From Escherichia phage EcoM2: a stretch of 64,000 nucleotides of DNA. This document shows, piece after piece, positions 6,611 to 22,911 of this stretch. The stretch lies in the sequence record PQ818761.1. The stretch is one strand, 5' to 3'. Each line of letters opens with the position of its first letter. Positions within the stretch are counted from its first letter, which is position 1. The translations under genes and the position numbers were made by a program. The notes beneath the pieces are model-generated. The model was not told the DNA's origin. It made no database searches and was given only the letters and a program-made list of their open reading frames with translations.

Positions 6611-7354
6611 ATGAGTAATATTATCGCATTTACTGGAAAGGCACGTTCTGGAAAAGACACCTCATGTTCTATTGTGAAGAACATCTTAGAGGATGAGTAT
6701 GGCTACAATGTTGAAGTAATGGCCTTTGCAGACAACCTTAAACTATCTGCATCAAAGATATTTGACTTGACTTGGAATGACCTGTACGGTGAAACTAAAG
6801 AGACTCCACAGGTTTTTGACTTATCATATCCTGAACTGATGTTTAAAGTTACGGAAGCTATGGAGTTCACCTTCAGAGATGAACGTTACCATATGGACTT
6901 CAAGCTTATGTCAGAGTTAACCGGACGATTAATCATGGAGCTTAAGAAGGTTGCTAAACCTACCCTATTAACACGTCTGGGATTTAGTAAAAAGTATAAA
7001 TTCTCATCAAGACAAATTCAACAGATTTGGGGTACTGAAGTTGTCCGTAAAGTAATGGGCGACAAGTTCTGGTCTAAAGACCTTGAAAAAAGAATGGTTA
7101 GATTCCATGAAATGTGCTCACTTAGAAATCAATATGGTTTTGTCTTAATCAGTGATTTAAGATTTGACTCTGAAGCTGAATGGCTGAGTAGATTTGCACA
7201 CCAAACTATTGAAGTAAAAAGAGACAATGTGGACAAAGTTTCATCACATGTTTCAGAAAATGGGATTTCTACAAAATATGAGCGTGACATTATTCATAAT
7301 AATGGTACTCTTGCAGACCTTGAGAACAAGCTAAGAGCCATCATTAAAGTTTAA
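6611..7354 (+). CDS. deoxynucleoside monophosphate kinase
   Basis: N-terminus MSNIIAFTGKARSGKDTS is a P-loop closely resembling the T4 gp1 dNMP kinase N-terminus as I recall it; 247 aa. Confidence 0.75.
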   Translation: MSNIIAFTGKARSGKDTSCSIVKNILEDEYGYNVEVMAFADNLKLSASKIFDLTWNDLYGETKETPQVFDLSYPELMFKVTEAMEFTFRDERYHMDFKLMSELTGRLIMELKKVAKPTLLTRLGFSKKYKFSSRQIQQIWGTEVVRKVMGDKFWSKDLEKRMVRFHEMCSLRNQYGFVLISDLRFDSEAEWLSRFAHQTIEVKRDNVDKVSSHVSENGISTKYERDIIHNNGTLADLENKLRAIIKV

Positions 7355-10935: not shown

Positions 10936-11976
10936 ATGGAGAAGTACACATTAAAAAAACTTCCCGATTCAGTTACACATGTCTTTATTGACTCTGACAG
11001 TATTGCCTATAAAGGTGCTTGTGTAGTTGAGAAAGCAAAATATAAATATGTCAATAAACTCACAGCAGAAGAATCTGAACCATTTGATAATGCAAAAGAT
11101 GCTTCAAGATGGTTAGCAGACCAGAGAATCCTTGTGGAAGAGCTTGGCCTAGCATTTGATGAAGATGAATGGGAAAGACAGACTTGGAAAGAAGCTAAGA
11201 GTGAAAAAGAAGCTATCATGGCTACTCAGCAGGTTCTTCAGGAATGGCTTAAGGTTGTTGGTAAAGAAAGAACTTGGGTAGGCTACTTAACAGAGAAAGG
11301 TGTACATAAACATAAAGACGTTAAAGGTCTTGAGCACCAATATCAAGGTAACCGTAAAGATGCTGTTACACCAACACATTTAGTCGCTTGTCGTGAATAT
11401 CTTTTATCCAGACCAGAGTTCAAGCTCTTAAAAGGTGGCTTCGAAGCTGACTCAATCGTAATTGCTAAAGCTGAAAAGATGGGTAAGAAAGCTGCTCTTA
11501 TGAGTATTGACAAAGACCTTCGACAAGCTGAAGGGACTTATTGTATTGATATGACTTATGAAAAGTCACCACTAATTTTTATTGCTGACAATAATGTTGG
11601 TGATATCTGGGATTGTCCTATCAAATCAAAACCAAAAGCTGCAAAAACAGTTGGTGTAGGTTTTAAATTCTTGTGTTATCAGGCTGTTGCTGGAGATAAT
11701 GCAGACAACTACTTCGGCCTTAAAGGTGCTGGCAAAGTAGCTGTAATGAATGCTTTAGATGGTAAAGAGACATATAAAGAGTGCCTTGATGCTATCTATG
11801 AACTCTATGCTAAAAAAGACTCTTATACCTATGTGTCATGGGATGGACAGACTGTTACCAAAACGCCATTAGAGTTAATGGAACAGCATTTCTGGATAGC
11901 ATATCAAGAGAGAAATCCAAAAGATAATTTCTCTTTTAAGAAATATAATTGGGAGCCGTGTATGAATGAAGATTAA
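10936..11976 (+). CDS. 5'-3' exonuclease / flap endonuclease
   Basis: N-terminal FIDSDSIAYKGA and later VAGDNADNYFGLKGAGKVAV resemble FEN / Pol I 5'-nuclease motifs; position next to replication genes. Confidence 0.6.
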   Translation: MEKYTLKKLPDSVTHVFIDSDSIAYKGACVVEKAKYKYVNKLTAEESEPFDNAKDASRWLADQRILVEELGLAFDEDEWERQTWKEAKSEKEAIMATQQVLQEWLKVVGKERTWVGYLTEKGVHKHKDVKGLEHQYQGNRKDAVTPTHLVACREYLLSRPEFKLLKGGFEADSIVIAKAEKMGKKAALMSIDKDLRQAEGTYCIDMTYEKSPLIFIADNNVGDIWDCPIKSKPKAAKTVGVGFKFLCYQAVAGDNADNYFGLKGAGKVAVMNALDGKETYKECLDAIYELYAKKDSYTYVSWDGQTVTKTPLELMEQHFWIAYQERNPKDNFSFKKYNWEPCMNED

Positions 11977-12463
11977 AGGATTTGGCAATTGTCCTACCTA
12001 TGGTCATTGGATATCTTTATGCGGGGAAGTTGACCCCGCTAAACATTTTGGTTTTGTCTATTTAGTATACTGTAAGAAAACCGGACAATATTATATTGGA
12101 AAGAAACAGCTTAATAGCGTGACCAAAAGAAAAGTTGCTGGTAAGACCCGGAAGAAGGTAGTCACTAAGGAGAGTGATTGGCTGACTTATGAGACATCTT
12201 CTGAGTATATTAAAAAAGATATTGAGAGCTTTGGAAAAGAATTTTTTGACTTTTACATTATCCAAACCTACTACACGAAAGGTGGCCTAGTTTATGGTGA
12301 AGCAAACCTCCAACATAAATTCGATGTAATGACAAAAAGGATTGACTCTAAGCTCAGACTCTTCTACAATGCCAATATTGCAGCAATTAAGTTTATTACT
12401 AAAGAAACTTATGAAGATGCTGAAAAAAGAATCCATAAGGTAATGAAAGCAAACTGTGCTTGA
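11966..12463 (+). CDS. hypothetical protein, possible GIY-YIG-like nuclease domain
   Basis: FVYLVYCKKTGQYYIGKK resembles a GIY...YIG motif pair; weak. Confidence 0.35.
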   Translation: MKIKGFGNCPTYGHWISLCGEVDPAKHFGFVYLVYCKKTGQYYIGKKQLNSVTKRKVAGKTRKKVVTKESDWLTYETSSEYIKKDIESFGKEFFDFYIIQTYYTKGGLVYGEANLQHKFDVMTKRIDSKLRLFYNANIAAIKFITKETYEDAEKRIHKVMKANCA

Positions 12464-12469
12464 TAACTA

Positions 12470-12733
12470 TTGAGAGAGAATAAAATGTTTAACAAAAGTA
12501 AAGCTGTGAGTCATGTAGCAAAAGTTGACAGCAAGATTGAAGAACTTGAGCGCATTCTTGCAAATGCCAGAGAGTCAATAATTAAAGAAGTTGAAGCTGT
12601 TGAATCTCAAATGCAGCACCTAATGCTTAAACGTCAAGAGCTACGTGAGCATCTGGAATATATTGAAACGCGAGAGCTAAAGGTTAACAAATATTTTAAG
12701 GAGTCCGAATGTTTAACTCAAGAGAATCAGTAA
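12470..12733 (+). CDS. hypothetical coiled-coil protein
   Basis: 87 aa ORF. Confidence 0.4.
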   Translation: MRENKMFNKSKAVSHVAKVDSKIEELERILANARESIIKEVEAVESQMQHLMLKRQELREHLEYIETRELKVNKYFKESECLTQENQ

Positions 12734-13464
12734 AAAACTGGAACCTTCGTTGTGGAAACACTCAAAAGCAACCTTACAGTGACGAGTATTGGGAATCTTT
12801 AAAGTCCCAATCTCTGTGTATGCTTGAAGAAGCAAAAGAGCTTGTAAAAGCAATTGAAGAGAAAGACCCCATTGAGACACTGGATGCTCAGGCAGATTTG
12901 CAATATGTCCTTGATGGTCTTATTTATCTGTCACAACATGACCATAACGGTGCTATGAAAGCTGTTTGTCATAATAATGACCTGAAGTACACAGATGACT
13001 ATGAAGAAGCTTTAAAACGTCTTGCAGATATTGAGAAGCGTACTGGTCAAGAGTGTATTATCAGAATGTCAGTGGTTGATGGTAAAGAGTGGTATGCGAT
13101 TGTCCGTGCAGCCGATGGGAAGATTATGAAGCAATCAAATCTCCCTAAAGTACAGCTTGGTGAATACATTGTAGAACTTGAAAGCCAAGAACTTTTTGTG
13201 GTAGTATCTGAGACATGCGTTATCTGCAAAGGTATTGTATGTAGCTTAAAGGATTTGGGTGTAGATGGTTTTGTAGAAGTTAATCCAATTACCTCTAAAG
13301 CAGATAAAGATTTCTGTAAAGAGAATGGACTATGGATTGCAGATATTGTCTACTATGATGGTGAGCAGTTCCATGTAACCTCATACCCAAAACTGAATTA
13401 TGATGCTAATAACCTGAAGTGCTGGTTAAAAGGGGTTGGTTATAATGGATTCACAGAACATTAA
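12709..13464 (+). CDS. hypothetical protein
   Basis: 251 aa ORF. Confidence 0.5.
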   Translation: MFNSRESVKNWNLRCGNTQKQPYSDEYWESLKSQSLCMLEEAKELVKAIEEKDPIETLDAQADLQYVLDGLIYLSQHDHNGAMKAVCHNNDLKYTDDYEEALKRLADIEKRTGQECIIRMSVVDGKEWYAIVRAADGKIMKQSNLPKVQLGEYIVELESQELFVVVSETCVICKGIVCSLKDLGVDGFVEVNPITSKADKDFCKENGLWIADIVYYDGEQFHVTSYPKLNYDANNLKCWLKGVGYNGFTEH

Positions 13465-13768
13465 TAAAGAAGGTGTGGCTCAGAAGAGCCACTTCTCAAA
13501 CTACAATATCTCTATGACGGTGTTTATGAATGACCCGTTACTTGAGAAGTATGGTGAGACTCCAGATACACTTCTGGATAATGAACAAGTTTTAAAAGCA
13601 GTTCTGTACAAATACGGGATTGATATTGAGAAAGAGTATTCTTTTGAAATCTGTCAACACAGGAATACTTTTGGTAAAGTTGTAATGGCTCCACTCTTCA
13701 TGGGTGTAGAAAGAACTGACTATGGTTGGTTATATCTAAAAAGAAACTTGGAGAAATACCGTGTCTAA
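13436..13768 (+). CDS. hypothetical protein
   Basis: 110 aa ORF. Confidence 0.4.
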   Translation: MVIMDSQNINKEGVAQKSHFSNYNISMTVFMNDPLLEKYGETPDTLLDNEQVLKAVLYKYGIDIEKEYSFEICQHRNTFGKVVMAPLFMGVERTDYGWLYLKRNLEKYRV

Positions 13769-14093
13769 AGCAAAAAAGCTATCTTATGATGACATTATCT
13801 CAGGTGCTAAATTAGGTGTTGATAGTATCGGACAAGATGTTAAGCACGGGGACACAGTCATGTACTGTGACGACAGAAGAGGCAGAAGTGCAATCTTGTT
13901 TGGAAGAGTTGTGTGCAAGATGCGAGGTAATTACGTTGTTGAAGACATGAATGTGGATGTCACAAAACAGCTTGAAATAATTATGAATAGTAATATATCA
14001 TGGTTCGTGAATTGTATGCACACCTCTTCAGTCACAAAGGTAAGTGATAAGTTTTACGATATGTGGCAGAATGAGCAAATTTTCAAGATTTAA
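13761..14093 (+). CDS. hypothetical protein
   Basis: 110 aa ORF. Confidence 0.4.
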   Translation: MSKAKKLSYDDIISGAKLGVDSIGQDVKHGDTVMYCDDRRGRSAILFGRVVCKMRGNYVVEDMNVDVTKQLEIIMNSNISWFVNCMHTSSVTKVSDKFYDMWQNEQIFKI

Positions 14094-14096
14094 ACT

Positions 14097-14126
14097 AGGG
14101 AGCCTCTTCGGAGGCTCTTTTCATCT
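14097..14126 (+). terminator. rho-independent terminator
   Basis: GGGAGCCTC-TTCG-GAGGCTC hairpin followed by TTTT. Confidence 0.6.
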
Positions 14127-14139
14127 GTAGGATTCAAAA

Positions 14140-16374
14140 ATGATTAAGACAATTAAAAAATCAAATGGTACAGTAGTAAGCTTTGACCCAGAAAGACTGA
14201 ATAAGTGGGCATCATGGGCAGATAAGCGTGGAATCATCTGGTCAGAAGTCACTATGGAAGCCATGAAACGTGTCTATGAAGGTTGCACTACAAAAGAGAT
14301 GCACCAAGCTATGATTGATGTTTGTGTTGATAAACAAACTCAAGAGTACTCAGACATGGCTGGGCGGCTACTTCTGGGGATTATCTACAAAGAAGCCTTT
14401 GGGGGCTTTACTAAGGTTCCTACGCTGATTACCTTCGTTAAAAATATGGAGAGAGCAGGACTTTGGGAGAAGATGGATTATTCACAGGAAGAGCTTGAAT
14501 ACCTGCAAGGTTACATCGTGCACTCAAAAGATATCTCTTACGGTTATGCAGTCTTGAAACAGTTCAGAGACAAGTACGGCATCCGTGATATTAAAACGGG
14601 AAGACTGTTTGAGTCACCACAATTTATGTTTATGGGTATGGCTATGAAAGCCTTTGAGAAGCAACCAAAGCACCGTAGACTGCAAGATGTTATCAAGCTG
14701 TACACTTACCTATCTGACCTGAAGATTAACGCTCCTACGCCTTATTTAAACGGTTTAAGAGCCACCAAGTCAGGCTATGCGTCATGCTGTTTGATTAAGG
14801 CAAATGATACTGCTGAATCACTTGGTATTGCTGCAAAGGTTGCTTATGATATGACTACAAAGCAAGCTGGTATTGGTATGCTGATGGAGACTCGCACTAT
14901 TGGTGATGGTATCCGTCAAAATACTATTGAGCACATGGGTAAACTACCTTATTACAAGCTTGTACGTTCATCTGTAGAGGCAAACAAACAGAAGAGTCGT
15001 GGTGGTTCAGCTAATAACTTCTACACTGCTCTAGACCCGCAGATTGAAGATTTACTGCGTTTGAAGCACCCTACAACGGTTCCTTCTAAACGTATTAATG
15101 AGATGGACTACTCATTCGGCACAAACGATTATTTCTGGCAGTGTGTTCAGTATGATACAGATTGGTTGCTATTCTCTTACAAAGATGCACCAAAACTCTA
15201 TGACATGTTCTACACAGCATCTGCTGATGAGTTTGCTATGGCAGTTGGTCACGCAGTACATTCAGGAGTTAAGCACAGACGAGTCAAGGCTCGTGAAATT
15301 GCTAAGCTGTTTATTCAACAGCGTTATGCTACAGGTCGTGTGTATCCATTCTTCACTAACAACGCAAACACACATACACCATTTAAAGAACCATTGAAGA
15401 TGTCAAATCTTTGTATGGAAATTGTATTGCCAGTGTATGGTTTTGAGAAAGAGACAGACCTTTACAGAGACGATGCTGTGAAAGAGGATGGTGAGGTGGC
15501 TCTTTGCTTCCTAGCTAGTTTGGTTGCAGGGAGAATTTCAGAAGATGAATACGCTGACGTTGCTTATTATGCTCTTGCAATGGTTGACTCCGTTATTGAC
15601 CTTATGGATTACCCGTATCCGTCGATGCGTAACCATGTTCAGAAGCGTCGTTCTGTTGGGATTGGCCTTACAAATGTGGCTCATTACCTTGCAAAGAACT
15701 ACGTGAACTACTCTTCACGAGCAGGTAAAACGAAACTTCATGAACTTGCAGAGATGCACTCTTACTATCTGCATGAAGCCTCGCTGAGACTTGCTAAAGA
15801 ACGTGGCGTGCCAGAGTACATGAAGTTCACTAAGTATCCTGAAGGCTGGGTTCCTCCAAAGACAGCTAACAAGAAGATTGATGAAAAGCATGATGCAAAA
15901 CTACGATATGATTGGGATGACTTAGCACAACGTATCAAAGAAAATGGTGGAATCCGAAACTCTGTATTAGAAGCTTACATGCCTAATGAGAGTTCTTCAC
16001 TAGCAACTAATACGACAAATGGCTTGTACCCAATTCGTGACTTTATTTTAACTAAAAAGTCTGCAACTGGTAACGTGCTGTTTATTGTTCCAGATTATGA
16101 AGAGTTGAAGTATGTCTATGAAATTGCTTGGGGTATTGACACCTTTGACCTGATTGATTGTTATGCAATTGTTCAAAAGTTCACTGGTCAAGCTATCTCT
16201 TCAGATTTCTATGTTGACTACGCAAAAGCTAAGAAGGTATCATTGGCTCAAGCTTTGAAGTACATGATTTATGCCAACTCGGTAGGTATGAAAACCATGT
16301 ACTACCTTAACAGTCGCATTGGTGTAGGTAAATCTGCACTGCAAGATGCTTATTGCGAGGGTTGTGGTGTTTAG
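14140..16374 (+). CDS. nrdA: ribonucleotide reductase class I large subunit
   Basis: 744 aa; N-terminal ATP-cone-like VVSFDPERLNKW and active-site region NLCMEIVLP typical of class I RNR alpha. Confidence 0.9.
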   Translation: MIKTIKKSNGTVVSFDPERLNKWASWADKRGIIWSEVTMEAMKRVYEGCTTKEMHQAMIDVCVDKQTQEYSDMAGRLLLGIIYKEAFGGFTKVPTLITFVKNMERAGLWEKMDYSQEELEYLQGYIVHSKDISYGYAVLKQFRDKYGIRDIKTGRLFESPQFMFMGMAMKAFEKQPKHRRLQDVIKLYTYLSDLKINAPTPYLNGLRATKSGYASCCLIKANDTAESLGIAAKVAYDMTTKQAGIGMLMETRTIGDGIRQNTIEHMGKLPYYKLVRSSVEANKQKSRGGSANNFYTALDPQIEDLLRLKHPTTVPSKRINEMDYSFGTNDYFWQCVQYDTDWLLFSYKDAPKLYDMFYTASADEFAMAVGHAVHSGVKHRRVKAREIAKLFIQQRYATGRVYPFFTNNANTHTPFKEPLKMSNLCMEIVLPVYGFEKETDLYRDDAVKEDGEVALCFLASLVAGRISEDEYADVAYYALAMVDSVIDLMDYPYPSMRNHVQKRRSVGIGLTNVAHYLAKNYVNYSSRAGKTKLHELAEMHSYYLHEASLRLAKERGVPEYMKFTKYPEGWVPPKTANKKIDEKHDAKLRYDWDDLAQRIKENGGIRNSVLEAYMPNESSSLATNTTNGLYPIRDFILTKKSATGNVLFIVPDYEELKYVYEIAWGIDTFDLIDCYAIVQKFTGQAISSDFYVDYAKAKKVSLAQALKYMIYANSVGMKTMYYLNSRIGVGKSALQDAYCEGCGV

Positions 16375-16429
16375 TTTTAACAACTATGAGGGTCGTAAAA
16401 GACCCTCTAAAAATAACTTTGGAGAGACC

Positions 16430-16687
16430 ATGAAAGATTTAATAGAAAAACATGAGCGACCAATATACTTGCTCTACAAACCCCGCAAAACATTGTACTA
16501 TGTGAGCAGCACAGGTATCATGATAAAGCAGAATGATGACTTATGGGTCACTGGAGCCTCTTACATCTCTACAGCAGATGGTAAAATCTACGCAAGACCT
16601 TATGAGATGTTTAACAAAGAGAATTGGGAAGTTTTAGACAGAAAACAAGCCTTAGAAATGATAAAGAAAGGAGAAATCACGCTATGA
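16430..16687 (+). CDS. hypothetical protein
   Basis: ORF-track ORF 16346..16687 trimmed to ATG 16430 (MKDLIEKHERP...) with GGAGAG RBS. Confidence 0.35.
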   Translation: MKDLIEKHERPIYLLYKPRKTLYYVSSTGIMIKQNDDLWVTGASYISTADGKIYARPYEMFNKENWEVLDRKQALEMIKKGEITL

Positions 16688-17757
16688 TTAACCAGCACCC
16701 AATCTTTTTAGGTGGTGAGAGAAAAACTTTTGACTCACTTAATAAGCACTACCCAAAAATCTTCGAACTTTATAAACAACAAAAAGCACAAGACTGGTCA
16801 GAAGATGAGTTCCCTTTTGAACAATCACGTCTTGATTTTGAGAGTGTCCCAGCATCAATGTCAGGTGTAATGCTTGAGATTCTTAAGTGGCAGTGGGAAG
16901 CAGACACTCAAGTTGCTAAGAGCTTGGCATTTGCCTTTGCACCCTTTATCTCTGATGACATCTATGCAACTGCAATTATGAAGCAGTCTGAGATTGAAAA
17001 CCTACACGCTCTTACTTACTCAGAGATTGTAAGACAATGTATTAAAAACCCTGAAACAATCTTAGATGAGATTAACCAGAATGTTGCTGTACAAGACCGA
17101 TTAAAAACTGTGAATCGTGTTCTTGAAGAATTACTGGATGAAGGTATAAACTATCGTCTGAGTTATGTGCGTGACTCACTTCTGGACAAAGACCCTTTAC
17201 ACTTCCATAAAGTGATTCTAAAAGGTCTATTTGCAGTGACTGCACTTGAAGGTATTTCTTTTATGGCATCTTTTGCATGTACTTTTGCACTTGATGCTCA
17301 AGATAAATTTCAAGGTATTGCTCAAGCTGTCCAGAAAATTATGCTTGACGAAATCCTTCACACTAAAATTGATATTGAAGTTTTAAAAGAAACTTTAAGA
17401 GATGATGAGTGGCAAAAAGCTTTCCAACAAATTCTTCCAGAGATTAAAGTAATCTTAGATGAAGTAGTTGAAAGTGAAGAGAAATGGTCGTATTATATCT
17501 TCTCCGAAGGACGTGCTGTAGTTGGGTTAAATACAAAGCTTCTTCATGAGTGGGTTTACTATAATGCTGCCCCACTGTATGATATGTTTGGCATTCCCAG
17601 AGATTTTGTAGCTCCTAAAGAACCACCTTTGAAGTATATGATTAAGAAGATGGAAATTGATAAAGAGCAGAATGCTAATCAGGAGCAACAGAACGGTGCG
17701 TATTTATTGAATACTGTTGTAGATGATTTGAATAGTGGATTTTTAGAGGTTCCTTAA
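16684..17757 (+). CDS. nrdB: ribonucleotide reductase class I small subunit
   Basis: Immediately follows nrdA; start ATG 16684 (MINQHPIF) has AGGAG RBS and ATGA overlap; about 357 aa, typical size for R2. Motif-level confirmation not done. Confidence 0.75.
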   Translation: MINQHPIFLGGERKTFDSLNKHYPKIFELYKQQKAQDWSEDEFPFEQSRLDFESVPASMSGVMLEILKWQWEADTQVAKSLAFAFAPFISDDIYATAIMKQSEIENLHALTYSEIVRQCIKNPETILDEINQNVAVQDRLKTVNRVLEELLDEGINYRLSYVRDSLLDKDPLHFHKVILKGLFAVTALEGISFMASFACTFALDAQDKFQGIAQAVQKIMLDEILHTKIDIEVLKETLRDDEWQKAFQQILPEIKVILDEVVESEEKWSYYIFSEGRAVVGLNTKLLHEWVYYNAAPLYDMFGIPRDFVAPKEPPLKYMIKKMEIDKEQNANQEQQNGAYLLNTVVDDLNSGFLEVP

Positions 17758-17999
17758 TGACTTATGTAATTTACTCCAAAACTGGATGCCCTCAGTGTGA
17801 GACTGCAAAGAATTTTGCGAAAGCTCGTGGTATTGACCATGTTGTGAGAATGTTAGGGCAGGATTATGAACTGCCAGACCTGATGGATATTGCACAGATG
17901 CCAGTTCGTCAGATGCCATTCATCATGAAAACTGACGGTCAAAACCTAAAACCTGTTGGGACGCTACAGAATTTTATGGCAGAGGTGAATAATGCTTAA
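17757..17999 (+). CDS. glutaredoxin-like protein (NrdH-type)
   Basis: 80 aa with CPQC redox motif near the N-terminus; TAATG overlap with nrdB. Confidence 0.7.
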   Translation: MTYVIYSKTGCPQCETAKNFAKARGIDHVVRMLGQDYELPDLMDIAQMPVRQMPFIMKTDGQNLKPVGTLQNFMAEVNNA

Positions 18000-18198
18000 A
18001 CGCATTTGGGAAGGTTTGGTTGTTGATGCACCAGCTATTGTGATTGGTATGCTGATTGTTAACCTATTTACTGACTTTGAACAAGGTTCATTGTTTGGAG
18101 CCATGTTACTATGGGTTATCTTCGAAATATTAGAGATACAGCTAGGCATCACTGAAAAACTAAGAAAACTCGTTTCAAAGTTTTCTAAAAAGATTTAA
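17992..18198 (+). CDS. hypothetical small membrane protein
   Basis: 68 aa, hydrophobic. Confidence 0.35.
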   Translation: MLKRIWEGLVVDAPAIVIGMLIVNLFTDFEQGSLFGAMLLWVIFEILEIQLGITEKLRKLVSKFSKKI

Positions 18199-18204
18199 AA
18201 TGAA

Positions 18205-18226
18205 AGGGTCTCTTCGGAGACCTTTT
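18205..18226 (+). terminator. rho-independent terminator
   Basis: GGGTCTC-TTCG-GAGACC hairpin followed by TTTTT. Confidence 0.6.
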
Positions 18227-18246
18227 TAGCATGTAAAGGGGCAATA

Positions 18247-20391
18247 ATGAACAAAGTACAGATTATTAAAAAGAATGGCTCACTTGAAGAACCTGATATC
18301 AAAAAAGTATTAGCAGCAGTAACTAAGTCAGCTAACAGGGTTGGATATAAAGAACTCCCACCAGATGTTACCCAAGCTCTTGAGTCAGCATTCATGAGGA
18401 TTCTGGTAAAGTCCACTAAGCAGAATAATTTACTCATCTCAGTCAATGATATTCACAGCATTGTTGAGGGTGCTTTGGCAGAAGTCAATCACGAGATTTA
18501 TGAGTCTTACTCAACATACAGAAATTACCGTAAAGAAGTTGCTCAAAATTGGGATGAACTCTATCAGAAGACTAAAGACACACTCTTCTTAGGTGACCGT
18601 GAAAATGCTAACTTTGACAGTAGTTTAATTTCTACAAAAGGTTCAATTATTCGTGGTTATCTGACTAAAGAAATCTTTAAACAGTACCATTTAACACCAG
18701 AGGAACTCGAAGCCATTGAGAAAGGGTTTATCTATATCCATGATTTAAGAGACCTAATTTTTGGTGGTATCAACTGTTGCCTGTTTGACATTGGTAAAGT
18801 GCTGAAAGGTGGCTTTGAAATGTCTGGCATCGAATACTGTGAACCAAAGTCTGTGCTGTCAGCCTTACAGGTTATCGGTGATGTAGTTCTTTCAGCAACT
18901 GCACAGCAATTTGGTGGTTTTACTTTAGCAGAGATTGATAAGGTGCTTGTACCGTATGCTAAGAAGTCTCTACGCTATCATGCTGAGAAAGCAGCATCTT
19001 ACGGTATTCCTAAAGAACATTACCATAATTATGTCATGGAGCAGCTACAGATTGAATTAACTCAAGGTTTCCAGTCACTAGAGATGAAGCTAAACACTGT
19101 GCCTTGTAGCCGTGGTGATTTTGCATTCACAACTTTAACATTTGGTTTACTTGACTCAGACATGTCTAATGAAGACAACCGACTACAATACATGATTGCA
19201 AGTACTCTCCTAGATGTTCGTATGAATGGGCAAGGTAAGAGCAAAAAACCTGTTGTATTCCCTAAACTGGTTTATATCTACGACCAGAAGAGACATGATG
19301 AAAATATCTGTCAAGGCCACTTGTACAGTAAAGCTATTGAGTGTTGCTCTAAAGCGATGTATCCAGATTTCTTAAGCGTATCTGGTCATGGTGCTGTAGC
19401 AGAAGCTTTTGAGCGTTCTGGCAAGGTAATTTCACCGATGGGTTGCAGAGCTTTCTTATCCCCATATCTTAACGAGAATGGAGAAGAGTTCTACGTTGGA
19501 CGTGCTAACATTGGTGCTGTGTCTTTGAACTTGCCAATGATTTACCAGTATTCTAAAGAGAATGGTTTAGATTTCTGGAAAGAGCTTGATAAGTACCTAG
19601 AGATGATTCGCAGCTTCCACAAGAAACGCTACGAAATGATTGCTAATATGCCAGCAAGTTCTAACCCTCTTGCATTCACACAAGGTGGTCTGTACAAAGG
19701 GACTAAGAAACCTACTGACAAGGTTGGTTGGGATATCGTGAAGTCCTTCACAGCTTCTTTTGGGGTTACTGCTCTTGATGAGCTGTCTGTTCTTGCTGAA
19801 GGTAAACGACTTCATGAAGTTGGAAGCTATAGTTTTGCATACGATGTTCTGGCATACATTAACATGAAAACTGAAGAGTTTAAGAACGAAGATGGCTTCT
19901 TGTATGCGGTATATGGCACTCCAGCAGAATCACTTTGTGGAACTCAGTTAAAACAGTTCAGGGATATGTTTGGCGTTATTAAAGGTGTCTCTGACAAGGA
20001 ATATTTTACAAACAGTTTCCATATGAATGTTGCAGCAGATATCTCACCATTTGAGAAGCAGGACTTAGAAGAGCCATTCTTCCATATCTGTAGAGGCGGC
20101 AGAATCCAGTATGTGAGAGTAGCTAACCCAGAAAACTTACCAGCACTTAAAAGTTGTATTACAAGAGGGATGTTGAAGGGTTTTTATCAGGGACTTAACT
20201 TTGACTTAGCAATCTGTGAACATTGTGGTAACAGACCAAAGGCTGATGTTGAAGAGTGTGAGGTTTGCCATTCACATGACATCTCTGTGATTAACAGGGT
20301 GTGCGGATATCTGGGATGGACTAAGATTAAAGGTGAATCCCGAATGAATGATGCAAAAATCGCTGAGATTCGTGACAGGATTTCTATGTAA
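18247..20391 (+). CDS. nrdD: anaerobic ribonucleoside-triphosphate reductase (class III)
   Basis: 714 aa; C-terminal Cys cluster CEHCGN...CEVCH followed by glycyl-radical motif RVCGYLG. Confidence 0.85.
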   Translation: MNKVQIIKKNGSLEEPDIKKVLAAVTKSANRVGYKELPPDVTQALESAFMRILVKSTKQNNLLISVNDIHSIVEGALAEVNHEIYESYSTYRNYRKEVAQNWDELYQKTKDTLFLGDRENANFDSSLISTKGSIIRGYLTKEIFKQYHLTPEELEAIEKGFIYIHDLRDLIFGGINCCLFDIGKVLKGGFEMSGIEYCEPKSVLSALQVIGDVVLSATAQQFGGFTLAEIDKVLVPYAKKSLRYHAEKAASYGIPKEHYHNYVMEQLQIELTQGFQSLEMKLNTVPCSRGDFAFTTLTFGLLDSDMSNEDNRLQYMIASTLLDVRMNGQGKSKKPVVFPKLVYIYDQKRHDENICQGHLYSKAIECCSKAMYPDFLSVSGHGAVAEAFERSGKVISPMGCRAFLSPYLNENGEEFYVGRANIGAVSLNLPMIYQYSKENGLDFWKELDKYLEMIRSFHKKRYEMIANMPASSNPLAFTQGGLYKGTKKPTDKVGWDIVKSFTASFGVTALDELSVLAEGKRLHEVGSYSFAYDVLAYINMKTEEFKNEDGFLYAVYGTPAESLCGTQLKQFRDMFGVIKGVSDKEYFTNSFHMNVAADISPFEKQDLEEPFFHICRGGRIQYVRVANPENLPALKSCITRGMLKGFYQGLNFDLAICEHCGNRPKADVEECEVCHSHDISVINRVCGYLGWTKIKGESRMNDAKIAEIRDRISM

Positions 20392-20407
20392 AACTTGACA
20401 AGGTGAT

Positions 20408-20445
20408 GTGGGTCTTGATAGGCTTACATCACCTTTTTTATTGGA
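20408..20445 (+). terminator. putative terminator
   Basis: GGTGATGT...ACATCACC inverted repeat followed by TTTTTT. Confidence 0.5.
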
Positions 20446-20545
20446 TGTTAGATATGGCAGAGAGTATTATTGGGTTGTTCATAGGTTCTGTCTTACTAGG
20501 GTTCTTTTTAGGACTCTCTTATTGTGAATTGAGAGATAAGCTAAA

Positions 20546-20746
20546 ATGTTTAAGATATCAAAAACGATGATATACATACTCCACATTCTAATCTTCTTCT
20601 TTGGGGTTAGTGTTATGGTATGGGGTTTTTCAGACCCACAATGGGGTTTCTCATATCATGGTCAGATGGATTTATGGTCATGCTTCAAACCATTTTTAGG
20701 GTTAGCTATAGCATTCAGTGCATTACCAACTAAGGTGAAATTATGA
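20546..20746 (+). CDS. hypothetical small membrane protein
   Basis: 66 aa, two hydrophobic segments. Confidence 0.35.
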   Translation: MFKISKTMIYILHILIFFFGVSVMVWGFSDPQWGFSYHGQMDLWSCFKPFLGLAIAFSALPTKVKL

Positions 20747-21138
20747 TTAAGTTAAACCAAAAACAGTTAGAGTGGCTTAAAGATTACGCCTCAGAGTGTG
20801 GCTCTTGCGAAAAGAATCACGTCAGGTACTCAACATTCCACACGGTTTTCACGTTGTACATCAGTGACAACGTTCTAAGTGATTCCGTAGAAGATGGTGT
20901 AGCGTTGCCTAATGAATTGCTTGACAAATTGGCTGTAGTCACTGGAACTTGGTCTGAAGAAGACGGTCATGAATTATCTGACAATGTTGTCTTCTACAGT
21001 CTTGAAAATATTATGAATCCAGAGTACATTATGTTAATGACTTGTGCACAAGACTGTGTGCCATTACAAAACTTCATTAAAGAGCACTGTGAAGAGTTTA
21101 TTACTAAACAGGTTCCCTGTCAGGTAGTATTTGAATGA
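20743..21138 (+). CDS. hypothetical protein
   Basis: 131 aa ORF. Confidence 0.45.
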   Translation: MIKLNQKQLEWLKDYASECGSCEKNHVRYSTFHTVFTLYISDNVLSDSVEDGVALPNELLDKLAVVTGTWSEEDGHELSDNVVFYSLENIMNPEYIMLMTCAQDCVPLQNFIKEHCEEFITKQVPCQVVFE

Positions 21139-21172
21139 GTAAAGCAATTAAATAAATTGGTGAGGTAACTAG

Positions 21173-21658
21173 ATGAACTACATGGAGATTCGACCATTTG
21201 ATACAGCTAATGGTGAAGGGGTTCGTGTAAGCCTCTTCGTAGCTGGTTGTAAACATCACTGTGAAGGCTGCTTTAACAGGGAGTCTTGGAAGTTTAATGC
21301 TGGTAAGGTATTTACTTATGCAAACCTCTACGGAATCATCCAGCTAATGGGTGATAATGCTGTCAGTGGTTTGTCAATACTTGGTGGAGAACCTCTGGAT
21401 GATAGAAATATTCAAGAGGTTACAGACATATGCAAACGTGTTAAAACTGTTTACCCAGAGAAGACTATATGGCTCTGGACAGGTTTTCAACTGCACGAAA
21501 AAATCCACTTAGATGTGATGAAATATGTTGACGTGGTGATTGATGGTAAGTATGATGCTTCTAAACCAACGAATAAACCATATCGTGGTTCAGGCAACCA
21601 AAACTTGTGGAGAAAAGAATATGGCTGGCAAGGTGACTGTCAATGGAGAGCAGAATGA
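21173..21658 (+). CDS. nrdG: anaerobic RNR activating protein (radical SAM)
   Basis: 161 aa with CKHHCEGC (CxxxCxxC) radical-SAM cluster motif near the N-terminus. Confidence 0.8.
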   Translation: MNYMEIRPFDTANGEGVRVSLFVAGCKHHCEGCFNRESWKFNAGKVFTYANLYGIIQLMGDNAVSGLSILGGEPLDDRNIQEVTDICKRVKTVYPEKTIWLWTGFQLHEKIHLDVMKYVDVVIDGKYDASKPTNKPYRGSGNQNLWRKEYGWQGDCQWRAE

Positions 21659-21754
21659 TTATTCTGGCAAATGGACTAAGGTGTAACTCCAATTGGTATC
21701 ACTGAAGAAGAACTTCATAAGTTCTGTATTAAACTTTAATGAGAGAGACTAAAA

Positions 21755-22021
21755 ATGGGAATTTTAGGTAATATGAAAGCTGGATTCTTGAAGGCACTGG
21801 CAAAAGCAGCAGCAATTGTTTCTATGACTGGAAAGCAGGTAGGTGTAGATGCTTCAGCGGTTGCACAGGTTCTTACAAGCCAAATTGAACAGCAGCCTTA
21901 CATATATGTAGGCCGTGGCAAAGGTGGTAAGAAACAAGCCCACCGTCCGTCTGGTGCAGCAGCTATTAAACGAGCAGCTAAGAAAGCTCGTAACCGTAAA
22001 CGTAATAAGAAGGTTAAATAA
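21755..22021 (+). CDS. hypothetical highly basic protein
   Basis: 88 aa, Lys/Arg-rich C-terminus (KKARNRKRNKKVK). Confidence 0.4.
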   Translation: MGILGNMKAGFLKALAKAAAIVSMTGKQVGVDASAVAQVLTSQIEQQPYIYVGRGKGGKKQAHRPSGAAAIKRAAKKARNRKRNKKVK

Positions 22022-22023
22022 TC

Positions 22024-22344
22024 ATGAGCAAAGTTTATAACACTCGTAAATTACAGATTTTCTTACTGTGCCAGTTTATGGCTATAGAGCATAACTCCTA
22101 CTATTGTGGTACAGGATTCATTAGTGATAATGATGGCTCATATCTCCCATTCAAAGAGGCTGTAAAACTCTTCAATGAAGAGAAAAGCTCTGAGAAAGAT
22201 ATTGAAAAGGTTAAATTAACCTATAGTAAGAAAGATAAGAAGATTATCTGCCTAGATAACTTTGTGAAAGTTACCAAAGAGACTAGAGAGTTAATGGAAG
22301 AAAGTGAAATTCCATTCACAAGAATCTTGAAAGTAGCTCAGTAA
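22024..22344 (+). CDS. hypothetical protein
   Basis: 106 aa ORF. Confidence 0.4.
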   Translation: MSKVYNTRKLQIFLLCQFMAIEHNSYYCGTGFISDNDGSYLPFKEAVKLFNEEKSSEKDIEKVKLTYSKKDKKIICLDNFVKVTKETRELMEESEIPFTRILKVAQ

Positions 22345-22356
22345 GCAGATACTATA

Positions 22357-22382
22357 AGGGAACTGTAAAGGTTCCCTTTTTA
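22357..22382 (+). terminator. rho-independent terminator
   Basis: GGGAAC-tgtaaag-GTTCCC hairpin followed by TTTTT. Confidence 0.55.
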
Positions 22383-22395
22383 TTTTGGAGATAAT

Positions 22396-22911
22396 ATGTA
22401 TCTGTCAAATCTGAAACGTTCTGCTGCAATGTCAGTGTTAAGACTCAGTTTTGAGGAACGTCAAGAGTTCATTGACTCCCACCAATACGACCCTTCCAAC
22501 TCCAATCACATGATTCTCTGGAATCGTGAGAGTACTCGTGAAAGAGCATTATTTCGATATTATCCACACTACACCATAGACAACCTGTATGAATGTTTTG
22601 TTGTGAAGAACACCATTACAGTACTCAATAAACTTTGCAGATATACAGGTAGTCAATCCTTCACATTAGGCCACCACAAACCTGTTACAAAAGGTGGTGA
22701 ACATCACTGTGCAAACTGGTTTATTCAGACTAAAGCTGATAACCAGAAGCAAGGAGATAGCCTTTTAAGTACCCCTAAGATGACCTATGAAGAGCAAGAG
22801 AGATATATCAAAAATAATATGCCAGATGTGCTTGACAACAACTATACAGATTTGGCAATATCTCTCCTGTTGAAGTTCGAGATAGTTTATAGGGCAACTT
22901 ACAATGGCTAA
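22396..22911 (+). CDS. HNH endonuclease
   Basis: LGHHKPVTKGGEHHCANW matches the HNH core (His-His...Asn). Confidence 0.6.
   Translation: MYLSNLKRSAAMSVLRLSFEERQEFIDSHQYDPSNSNHMILWNRESTRERALFRYYPHYTIDNLYECFVVKNTITVLNKLCRYTGSQSFTLGHHKPVTKGGEHHCANWFIQTKADNQKQGDSLLSTPKMTYEEQERYIKNNMPDVLDNNYTDLAISLLLKFEIVYRATYNG

Follow-up and report, generated by a model that had tools for sequence, protein, structure and literature searches.

Escherichia phage EcoM2 (PQ818761.1) carries genes for both aerobic and anaerobic ribonucleotide reduction in a single cluster, and embedded in that cluster are very small genes with hydrophobic products. The locus raises the question of whether these small genes encode real proteins and, if they do, whether the proteins belong to the ribonucleotide reductase (RNR) machinery around them. 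We addressed it in a stretch of 64,000 nucleotides of EcoM2 DNA (the window, whose coordinates are used throughout), where the cluster occupies positions 14140–21658 of the plus strand. The small genes are orf68 (17992–18198), orf66 (20546–20746) and orf38 (20454–20570), named after the lengths of their products. An initial annotation, made from the sequence alone, had listed hydrophobic open reading frames (ORFs) at the first two positions, and both exist exactly so, with products of 68 and 66 amino acids. It contained neither the third hydrophobic gene nor the two soluble ORFs at 16430–16687 (orf85) and 20743–21138 (orf131). Our overall account, which we consider likely, is of a known RNR cluster in which the small ORFs are real genes for inner-membrane proteins that may be host-directed.

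Identity and layout of the cluster

The window is a Felixounavirus genome. A megablast search with the span 14000–21800 matched 262 phage records, 242 of which cover at least 80% of it, and the best matches (LF82P3, VpaE1 and HY02) show approximately 96% nucleotide identity. The order and sizes of the genes are those of ORF112–ORF121 of phage Felix O1, whose nrdABDG cluster was published in 2010 (Whichard et al., PMC3185647; NC_005282). Common to both phages are the terminators t111 and t116, an 80-residue glutaredoxin and the small membrane ORFs 116, 118 and 119. The proteins compared between them (the glutaredoxin, orf68, the C-terminus of NrdD, orf38, orf66, orf131 and NrdG) are 88–98% identical, and the two loci differ at the level of alleles only. 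Felix O1 ORF119 is present in the DNA but missing from the RefSeq record. The aerobic and anaerobic RNR module is a known Felix O1-like cluster and is not new, as the label of known biology in the initial annotation already had it. Published work and hundreds of GenBank records already contain both the module and its small ORFs; the present analysis adds annotation corrections and facts of distribution. For large virulent phages such a cluster is textbook biology, and the finding is of little consequence outside annotation.

Conserved hairpin terminators would divide the cluster into three stretches. The first unit (14140–18198) would comprise nrdA, orf85, nrdB, the glutaredoxin gene (grx) and orf68, and the second nrdD alone, followed by a conserved element composed of TTGACA, a hairpin and a T-run. 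The third would hold orf38, orf66, orf131 and nrdG. Neighbouring genes overlap by 4 nucleotides (orf85/nrdB), 1 nucleotide (nrdB/grx), 8 nucleotides (grx/orf68), 25 nucleotides (orf38/orf66) and 4 nucleotides (orf66/orf131). Through the first three of these start/stop overlaps, orf85, nrdB, grx and orf68 would form a translationally coupled chain.

Small membrane protein genes and their distribution

The product of orf68 (Felix O1 ORF116) is a predicted small membrane protein of 68 residues. Hydropathy (Kyte-Doolittle, 19-residue windows above 1.6) predicts two transmembrane helices, which are followed by a basic amphipathic C-terminal helix, and the AlphaFold2 model has helices at residues 2–27, 29–51 and 53–67 with a predicted local distance difference test (pLDDT) score of 71. 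A GAGGTG ribosome-binding site lies 5 nucleotides before the ATG, which precedes the end of grx. As the final cistron of the aerobic unit, orf68 stands before an intrinsic terminator (GGTCTC-TTCG-GAGACC then TTTTT, 18204–18227) that equals t116 of Felix O1. This terminator is invariant in three genera, and a divergent metagenomic relative described below has a different stem, with compensatory changes, but keeps the TTCG loop. Along its full length, the protein matches phrog_4532 (E=2e-42), a PHROG family of unknown function. Neither Pfam (searched to an E of 10) nor NCBIfam nor PADLOC contains a meaningful match to orf68, and BFVD has none to its AlphaFold2 model.

The gene is widely distributed and always in the same place. 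By tblastn, orf68 occurs in 257 phage records and adjoins the glutaredoxin gene in all of them, with 67% protein identity in Suspvirus and 42–61% in Mooglevirus; in the three genera examined, the annotated loci retain the 8-nucleotide overlap with grx. The mean pairwise ratio of nonsynonymous to synonymous substitution rates (dN/dS) among 34 unique alleles is 0.14, and values against Suspvirus- and Mooglevirus-type relatives range from 0.08 to 0.32. The lowest of these accompanies a dS of 2.5, between the window and phage mistaenkt. Thirty-two of the 34 full-length unique alleles are open, and the remaining two are presumably Mooglevirus genes that are two codons shorter. Conserved residues include D12 and P14 at the start of helix 1 (D-A-P in three genera) and, three positions apart in helix 2, two acidic residues, E45 and a glutamate or aspartate at position 48.

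Beyond these phages, word-indexed homologue searches with orf68 found close relatives only. An exhaustive profile search across 1.84 billion representative proteins yielded five hits. The three genuine ones are Ounavirinae-type proteins plus an 82-residue protein, P0142. The other two are a 420-residue repetitive protein that looks spurious and a 1307-residue protein with 15 short matched stretches. P0142 comes from a 41-kb metagenomic contig (L031) with the order nrdA, orf85, nrdB, grx, orf68-like gene and terminator, in which the 8-nucleotide overlap is again kept; this contig carries no nrdD. An independent pair of contigs from a human gut metagenome (L047 and L048) likewise has an orf68-like gene after grx and lacks nrdD. 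The orf68-like genes of L031 and L048 diverge with a dN/dS of 0.25. Between the window and L031, identity is 29% for orf68 and 72–84% for the glutaredoxin, NrdA and NrdB. As judged from these searches, the orf68 family is confined to Ounavirinae-like phages. The same comparisons identify orf68 as a core gene of the subfamily, predicted to be produced together with the redoxin, and it is almost certainly a real gene for a small inner-membrane protein. It is the sole core gene among the small ones, and its coupling to the glutaredoxin is invariable.

The second gene, orf66 (Felix O1 ORF119), encodes an accessory small membrane protein. By the same hydropathy measure, one strong transmembrane helix at the N-terminus is followed by a loop and then by another, shorter hydrophobic segment. 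Conservation is concentrated in the motif WGFS[DN]PQW...MD.W.C.KPF.GLA, which lies between the two hydrophobic segments and extends into both, and reads WGFSDPQW...MDLWSC.KPF in the loop of the window protein. A full-length match to phrog_11929, annotated as 'membrane protein', has E=5e-47; NCBIfam, PADLOC and Pfam gave nothing meaningful (a weak QcrA_N match has E=0.29). The gene is found in 187 phage records, all Felixounavirus-type, and is absent from Suspvirus, Mooglevirus and Si3/Mushroom-type phages. Homologues of 47–52% identity are present in the nrdD-less contigs L031, L047 and L048, directly after the orf68 terminator. All 31 unique Felixounavirus alleles are open, and between L031 and L048 the dN/dS is 0.147 at a dS of 1.05. 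We regard orf66 as very probably a real gene for a small inner-membrane protein. Its identification as a lipoprotein was rejected, the lipobox-like LLGC being found in L031 and L048 only and not in Felixounavirus.

The third gene calls for a correction of existing annotation. Directly 3' of nrdD, a terminator scan identified TTGACA followed by a 16-pair hairpin and a T-run (20395–20441, with hairpin and T-run at 20400–20441). This element is invariant across three genera, more conserved than the flanking coding DNA, and in phage ESh22 the hairpin carries a double compensatory swap from GGTGATG/CATCACC to GGTAGTG/CACTACC. It is probably a terminator or attenuator. We rejected the idea that the TTGACA-hairpin is a repeated regulatory element, as a single copy lies within the window. 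Rfam gave no matches over 13500–22500. Felix O1 ORF118, annotated with 54 residues, begins inside this hairpin. The first 16 codons of the annotated frame have a dN/dS of 0.81 and contain stops in 9 of 17 unique alleles; the real gene therefore encodes a peptide of 38–41 residues. Suspvirus has a 1-nucleotide indel between the hairpin and the remainder of the ORF118 frame. A 55-residue form of ORF118 matches phrog_20082 (E=3e-40), and this annotation translates through the hairpin element. Annotations of a 54- or 55-residue 'membrane protein' after nrdD should thus read as a gene for a 38–41-residue peptide behind a conserved hairpin.

This true core of ORF118 is orf38. Counted from 20454 the product has 38 residues, and from an alternative ATG at 20445 it has 41; it is a predicted single-helix membrane peptide with a basic tail. 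Its dN/dS is 0.12–0.13. Unannotated homologues of 38–41 residues are present in Mooglevirus and Suspvirus (L004:8881-8997, L008:8710-8826 and L003:8451-8576), with 87% identity in Suspvirus and recognition by the motif GSVLLGFxLGLxY in Mooglevirus, and they always abut the orf131 homologue on its upstream side. Pfam (E up to 10) and PADLOC gave nothing meaningful for orf38, which was not run against NCBIfam. A Hok-like toxin was considered and rejected: the 'CEL' resemblance is not kept in Mooglevirus, and there is no Pfam match. On the basis of hydropathy and selection, orf38 is probably a real gene for a small inner-membrane protein.

Downstream of orf66 and upstream of nrdG lies orf131 (20743–21138; Felix O1 ORF120), which encodes a conserved soluble protein of the PHROG family phrog_4382, of unknown function. 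It has a dN/dS of 0.075 and 40–56% identity in other genera. A homologue search gave close relatives only, and a PDB profile search was without matches. Beyond a weak match to HEC-01B (E=0.007), searches of Pfam (to an E of 10), NCBIfam and PADLOC yielded no meaningful match. The best AlphaFold2 model has a pLDDT of 63 and the other four approximately 36, and all BFVD matches are uncharacterised phage proteins. A cysteine-based redox or metal protein was ruled out, as only C116 is conserved.

The slot between nrdD and nrdG is mosaic. In Si3 (L065:8099-8707), Mushroom, VSe11 and others, an HNH homing endonuclease of approximately 200 residues replaces orf38, orf66 and orf131; 51 records align with this arrangement across 80% or more of the query. 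Because the phages with the replacement are plaque-forming isolates, orf38, orf66 and orf131 are dispensable, and NrdD and NrdG therefore need no orf131. Felixounaviruses of the Alf5 type have a 111-residue membrane protein (L006:9205-9540, Alf5_119) in the place of orf38, and its C-terminal domain is homologous to a Mooglevirus membrane protein of 85–87 residues (L004:8636-8899 and L005:8639-8896). This cassette combines one or two N-terminal helices with a C-terminal domain of about 50 residues that has two conserved cysteines. Mooglevirus also has an extra 60-residue soluble ORF, and Suspvirus has orf38 only. Many Felixounaviruses carry an ORF of 99–100 residues between orf131 and nrdG (L001:8636-8935, HY02 gp117), also found at 37% identity in the metagenomic contig (L031:6491-6793) and absent from the window and from Felix O1. 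From this distribution, orf38 and orf66 are dispensable accessory genes in what looks to be a recombination-prone slot. The positions of orf66, orf38 and orf131 are safe ones for engineering therapeutic Felixounaviruses. The initial annotation had named lack of conservation as a ground for discounting its two small ORFs. It does not apply to orf68, which is conserved in 257 records, three genera and the divergent lineage, and applies in part to orf66, which is conserved where present and replaced in approximately 50 isolates.

Possible roles of the small membrane proteins

The initial annotation gave neither of its two small ORFs a role, and existing records agree with it, calling them 'hypothetical' or 'membrane protein'. 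The profile searches it proposed for them return PHROG families that are of unknown function or labelled 'membrane protein', and no meaningful Pfam match. It also implied that the small ORFs are parts of the RNR machinery, and here it finds no backing in any evidence that we tested. Since orf68 and orf66 both persist in the lineage that lacks nrdD, they are not accessories of the anaerobic reductase. The only published suggestion of a role is that of ORF116, ORF118 and ORF119 as holin candidates (PMC3185647).

The reading we prefer, though only tentatively, is that the small ORFs encode effectors of the host inner membrane; a role as RNR subunits or as the lysis holin is improbable. The proteins would insert into the host inner membrane in early to middle infection and alter its function; possible targets are superinfection exclusion and the modulation of a transporter or membrane complex. 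A parallel exists with Imm and Sp of phage T4, which act in superinfection exclusion. These short proteins have one or two transmembrane helices, are encoded among early or middle genes, can be dispensed with under laboratory conditions and differ from relative to relative. The genes orf38 and orf66, together with the alternative cassettes of the slot, behave in a similar way, and the comparison is by analogy, with no homology detected.

Several points weigh against our overall account. The functional guess draws only on how small and hydrophobic the products are, on where their genes lie and on an analogy to small membrane proteins in other virulent phages, and no homologue of known function was found for the small ORFs in Pfam, NCBIfam (searched with orf68 and orf66), PADLOC or BFVD (searched with the orf68 model). 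Within Felixounavirus, orf66 is under weak constraint, with a dN/dS of 0.36 at an unusually low dS of 0.19. ORF116, ORF118 and ORF119 are missing from the table of reverse-transcription PCR results for Felix O1; in favour of our account, their neighbours ORF114, ORF115 and ORF120 were transcribed during infection by that method (PMC3185647). Our literature search found no transcriptomic or functional data on the small ORFs. Lastly, the unbroken linkage of orf68 to grx, along with a two-helix analogue in Kolesnikvirus, could indicate a functional tie to the aerobic RNR unit, to which our preferred reading gives little weight.

Such a tie is the core of an alternative in which orf68 serves the phage glutaredoxin or the class Ia RNR as a dedicated partner in the membrane, and its co-translation with the glutaredoxin reflects a complex. 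The protein might tether the synthesis of deoxynucleoside triphosphates (dNTPs) to the membrane, or it might adjust the supply of reductant or metal to NrdB. The 8-nucleotide overlap with grx, kept in three genera and in the nrdD-less contig L031, is in keeping with this, as are D12, E45 and E/D48, conserved acidic residues located within or close to the membrane helices predicted for the protein. A further argument comes from Kolesnikvirus (Erwinia phage vEam_PM_21, L098:4768-4986) and Salmonella phage PMBT37 (L099:3268-3486), where a 72-residue ORF with two predicted transmembrane helices occupies the equivalent position after grx. Both phages have nrdA, nrdB and grx and lack nrdD and nrdG. 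The 72-residue ORF is a positional analogue of orf68 and not a homologue, with an hhalign probability of 0.06%. Against a partnership, synteny inside one subfamily can be plain inheritance, and orf68 diverges much faster than the glutaredoxin, NrdA and NrdB, as seen in the comparison of the window with L031. No cysteine is conserved across the family (there is none in the proteins of the Ounavirinae genera), which argues that orf68 itself performs no redox chemistry. We also know of no RNR system that uses a membrane subunit. A membrane partnership of orf68 is accordingly an improbable explanation in our view. We give as little credence to its broader form, in which the glutaredoxin and class Ia RNR unit would have an obligate two-helix membrane companion throughout Ounavirinae, one that couples aerobic dNTP synthesis to the membrane, for instance by positioning the enzymes or by regulating reductant or metal supply. 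Were it true, the orf68-type companion would be a previously unrecognised accessory component of a phage RNR system.

More doubtful still is the proposal of Whichard et al. (2010, PMC3185647) that the phage holin, or an antiholin, is encoded by ORF116, ORF118 or ORF119. In their small size, their one or two transmembrane helices and their charged C-terminus the proteins look like holins, and gp116, gp118 and gp119 are listed as candidates in that study. In Felix O1, moreover, the lysin gene ORF35 peaks at 25 min, like ORF114 and ORF115 (PMC3185647), and lysis genes are scattered in genomes of this kind (Moogle, for example). For orf38 and orf66 the distribution is decisive: both are absent from about 50 plaque-forming isolates, so that neither is the essential holin. 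orf68 has the ubiquity expected of a holin (257 records), and its topology fits a class II holin with both ends inside. It resembles class II holins and pinholins such as S21 of phage 21 in its size, its two predicted helices, its basic C-terminus and the cytoplasmic location predicted for both ends by the positive-inside rule. Unlike them, it has no sequence similarity to such holins in Pfam or PHROGs, is distant from lysis genes and has an acidic second helix, with two conserved acidic residues in the predicted membrane segment. Its flanks are RNR genes, and it belongs to a unit for nucleotide metabolism, where its translation is coupled to that of a redoxin. Across all the small ORFs, there is no match to a described holin family in Pfam or PHROGs and no adjoining lysis gene. 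Existing annotations place the holin elsewhere: lysis specialists annotate a single-helix 'class-III holin' at another position in Michonne, the orf68 homologue in Maleficent is labelled just 'membrane protein', and another Ounavirinae annotation assigns the holin to a gp79-like gene. We consider a holin function of these proteins very unlikely.

Least credible of all is the idea that the small ORFs are chance frames in AT-rich spacer, conserved on account of RNA or regulatory elements: although the 5' part of annotated ORF118 is truly hairpin and not coding, and although orf66 combines its low dS with weak codon-position bias within Felixounavirus, protein homology outlasts saturated synonymous divergence (orf66 between L031 and L048, orf68 between the window and mistaenkt), the frame is intact in 31 of 31 full-length unique alleles of orf66 and in 32 of 34 of orf68, a GAGGTG ribosome-binding site precedes the orf68 ATG and Rfam has no match in the region.

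The reductase genes and their surroundings

The principal genes of the module, named by the initial annotation as nrdA, nrdB, a CPxC glutaredoxin, nrdD and a radical S-adenosylmethionine (SAM) activase nrdG, are all on the plus strand at the coordinates it gave, and profile searches agree with each assignment. The cluster is preceded by an intrinsic terminator (GAGCCTC-TTCG-GAGGCTC then TTTT, 14098–14121) identical to t111 of Felix O1, which is listed in Table 2 of PMC3185647. nrdA (14140–16374) encodes the 744-residue large subunit of a class Ia RNR. Its product matches Ribonuc_red_lgC (PF02867, 304 bits, E=2e-90), the all-alpha domain PF00317 (53 bits, E=3e-14) and the NCBIfam model TIGR02506 (578 bits against a cutoff of 341). 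At 20.5 bits, the match to the ATP-cone model PF03477 stays under the cutoff of 25.8. The translation contains NLCMEI, ASCCLI, ALCFL, MYY and a C-terminal CEGC redox pair. Among these motifs are what we take to be the catalytic cysteines, the YY radical-transfer pair and the shuttle cysteines, equated with E. coli positions without an alignment. The dN/dS of nrdA is 0.01–0.05.

Between nrdA and orf85 is a stem-loop without a T-run (GAGGGTC-GTAAAA-GACCCTC, 16388–16407). It is invariant in Felixounavirus, in Mooglevirus and in the divergent contigs L031 and L048; Suspvirus has another stem in this gap (GGGGGCT/GCCCCT) with the same kind of loop. The element may act in the processing or stability of the mRNA. 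The conserved soluble protein encoded by orf85 (16430–16687; Felix O1 ORF113) matches phrog_2652 (E=8.5e-37) with residues 29–113 of a mechanically called 113-residue ORF (16346–16687). Conservation of this longer ORF 5' of the true start at 16430 is due to the stem-loop. The stop of orf85 overlaps the start of nrdB in the sequence ATGA. orf85 has a dN/dS of 0.09 and is 33–48% identical in other genera and L031. A PDB profile search with it was without matches, NCBIfam and PADLOC gave nothing meaningful, and Pfam up to E of 10 gave only a weak match to DUF1653 (E=0.13). A YfaE-like ferredoxin was ruled out, as orf85 has zero cysteines.

nrdB (16684–17757) encodes the 357-residue small subunit of the class Ia enzyme, a Ribonuc_red_sm protein (PF00268, 119.5 bits against a cutoff of 33.6, E=2e-34). 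Its best NCBIfam match is the class Ia beta model, under the equivalog cutoff of that model. The metal and radical motifs ENLHALTY and DEILH are present in the translation, and dN/dS is at most 0.03. The start is the ATG at 16684, as annotated in all relatives, and the mechanical ORF begins at a TTG at 16624. The redoxin gene grx (17757–17999; Felix O1 ORF115) encodes a glutaredoxin-fold protein of 80 residues with CPQC at residues 11–14. It matches PF00462 (29.5 bits against a cutoff of 22.9) and phrog_22, a thioredoxin domain family; none of the NCBIfam glutaredoxin and NrdH models comes near its cutoff, and they do not distinguish between these subclasses. From what is known of these families, NrdAB would reduce nucleoside diphosphates aerobically by the class Ia mechanism, and the C-terminal CEGC pair of NrdA would be re-reduced by the CPQC redoxin.

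The anaerobic enzyme is encoded by nrdD (18247–20391), an uninterrupted gene for a class III RNR of 714 residues. NrdD matches PF13597 (E=7e-114), an ATP-cone (46 bits), Gly_radical and TIGR02487 (483 bits against a cutoff of 326), and its translation has the glycyl-radical motif RVCGY and a zinc-ribbon CEHC...CEVC (CxxC...CxxC). Its radical-SAM activase NrdG (161 residues, 21173–21658) matches PF13353 (E=8e-43) and TIGR02491 (191 bits against a cutoff of 126) and contains CKHHCEGC (CxxxCxxC). By analogy with characterised members of these families, NrdG would form the glycyl radical on NrdD for anaerobic reduction of nucleoside triphosphates. The nrdD gene of some relatives is interrupted by an intron that carries an HNH homing endonuclease gene, as in JohannRWettstein (L033:6631-9517), Alf5 (L006:6256-9142) and D1-2 (L009), and one record annotates the split gene as a two-part joined coding sequence. 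The lineage without nrdD keeps a 151-residue homologue of NrdG (L031:6915-7370 and L048:5597-6049) that shares 31–34% identity with the window protein. Although it lacks the CxxxCxxC radical-SAM motif, it evolves under purifying selection, with a dN/dS of 0.12 between the two contigs, and it may be a repurposed relic of the activase.

The gene content has a well-known counterpart in phage T4, another virulent myovirus, which has a class Ia RNR (nrdA/nrdB), a class III RNR (nrdD/nrdG), a redoxin of its own (nrdC, a glutaredoxin-like thioredoxin) and a deoxynucleoside monophosphate (dNMP) kinase. The RNR genes of T4 are dispersed, whereas those of the window form one cluster. nrdD of T4 is a target of introns and homing endonucleases, and nrdD of the window is intron-free. 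The dNMP kinase gene of EcoM2 had been included in the initial annotation, and a match to PF21448 (DNMK, E=1e-20, 74.8 bits against a cutoff of 27.1) places it at 6611–7354 on the plus strand, 7 kb upstream of the RNR cluster. Just upstream of the cluster are genes for a SegE-like GIY-YIG homing endonuclease (11966–12463; PF19835, E=3e-27) and a MazG/PRA-PH-like pyrophosphohydrolase (12709–13464). Genes for a phosphoribosyl pyrophosphate synthetase and a nicotinamide phosphoribosyltransferase lie downstream of it.

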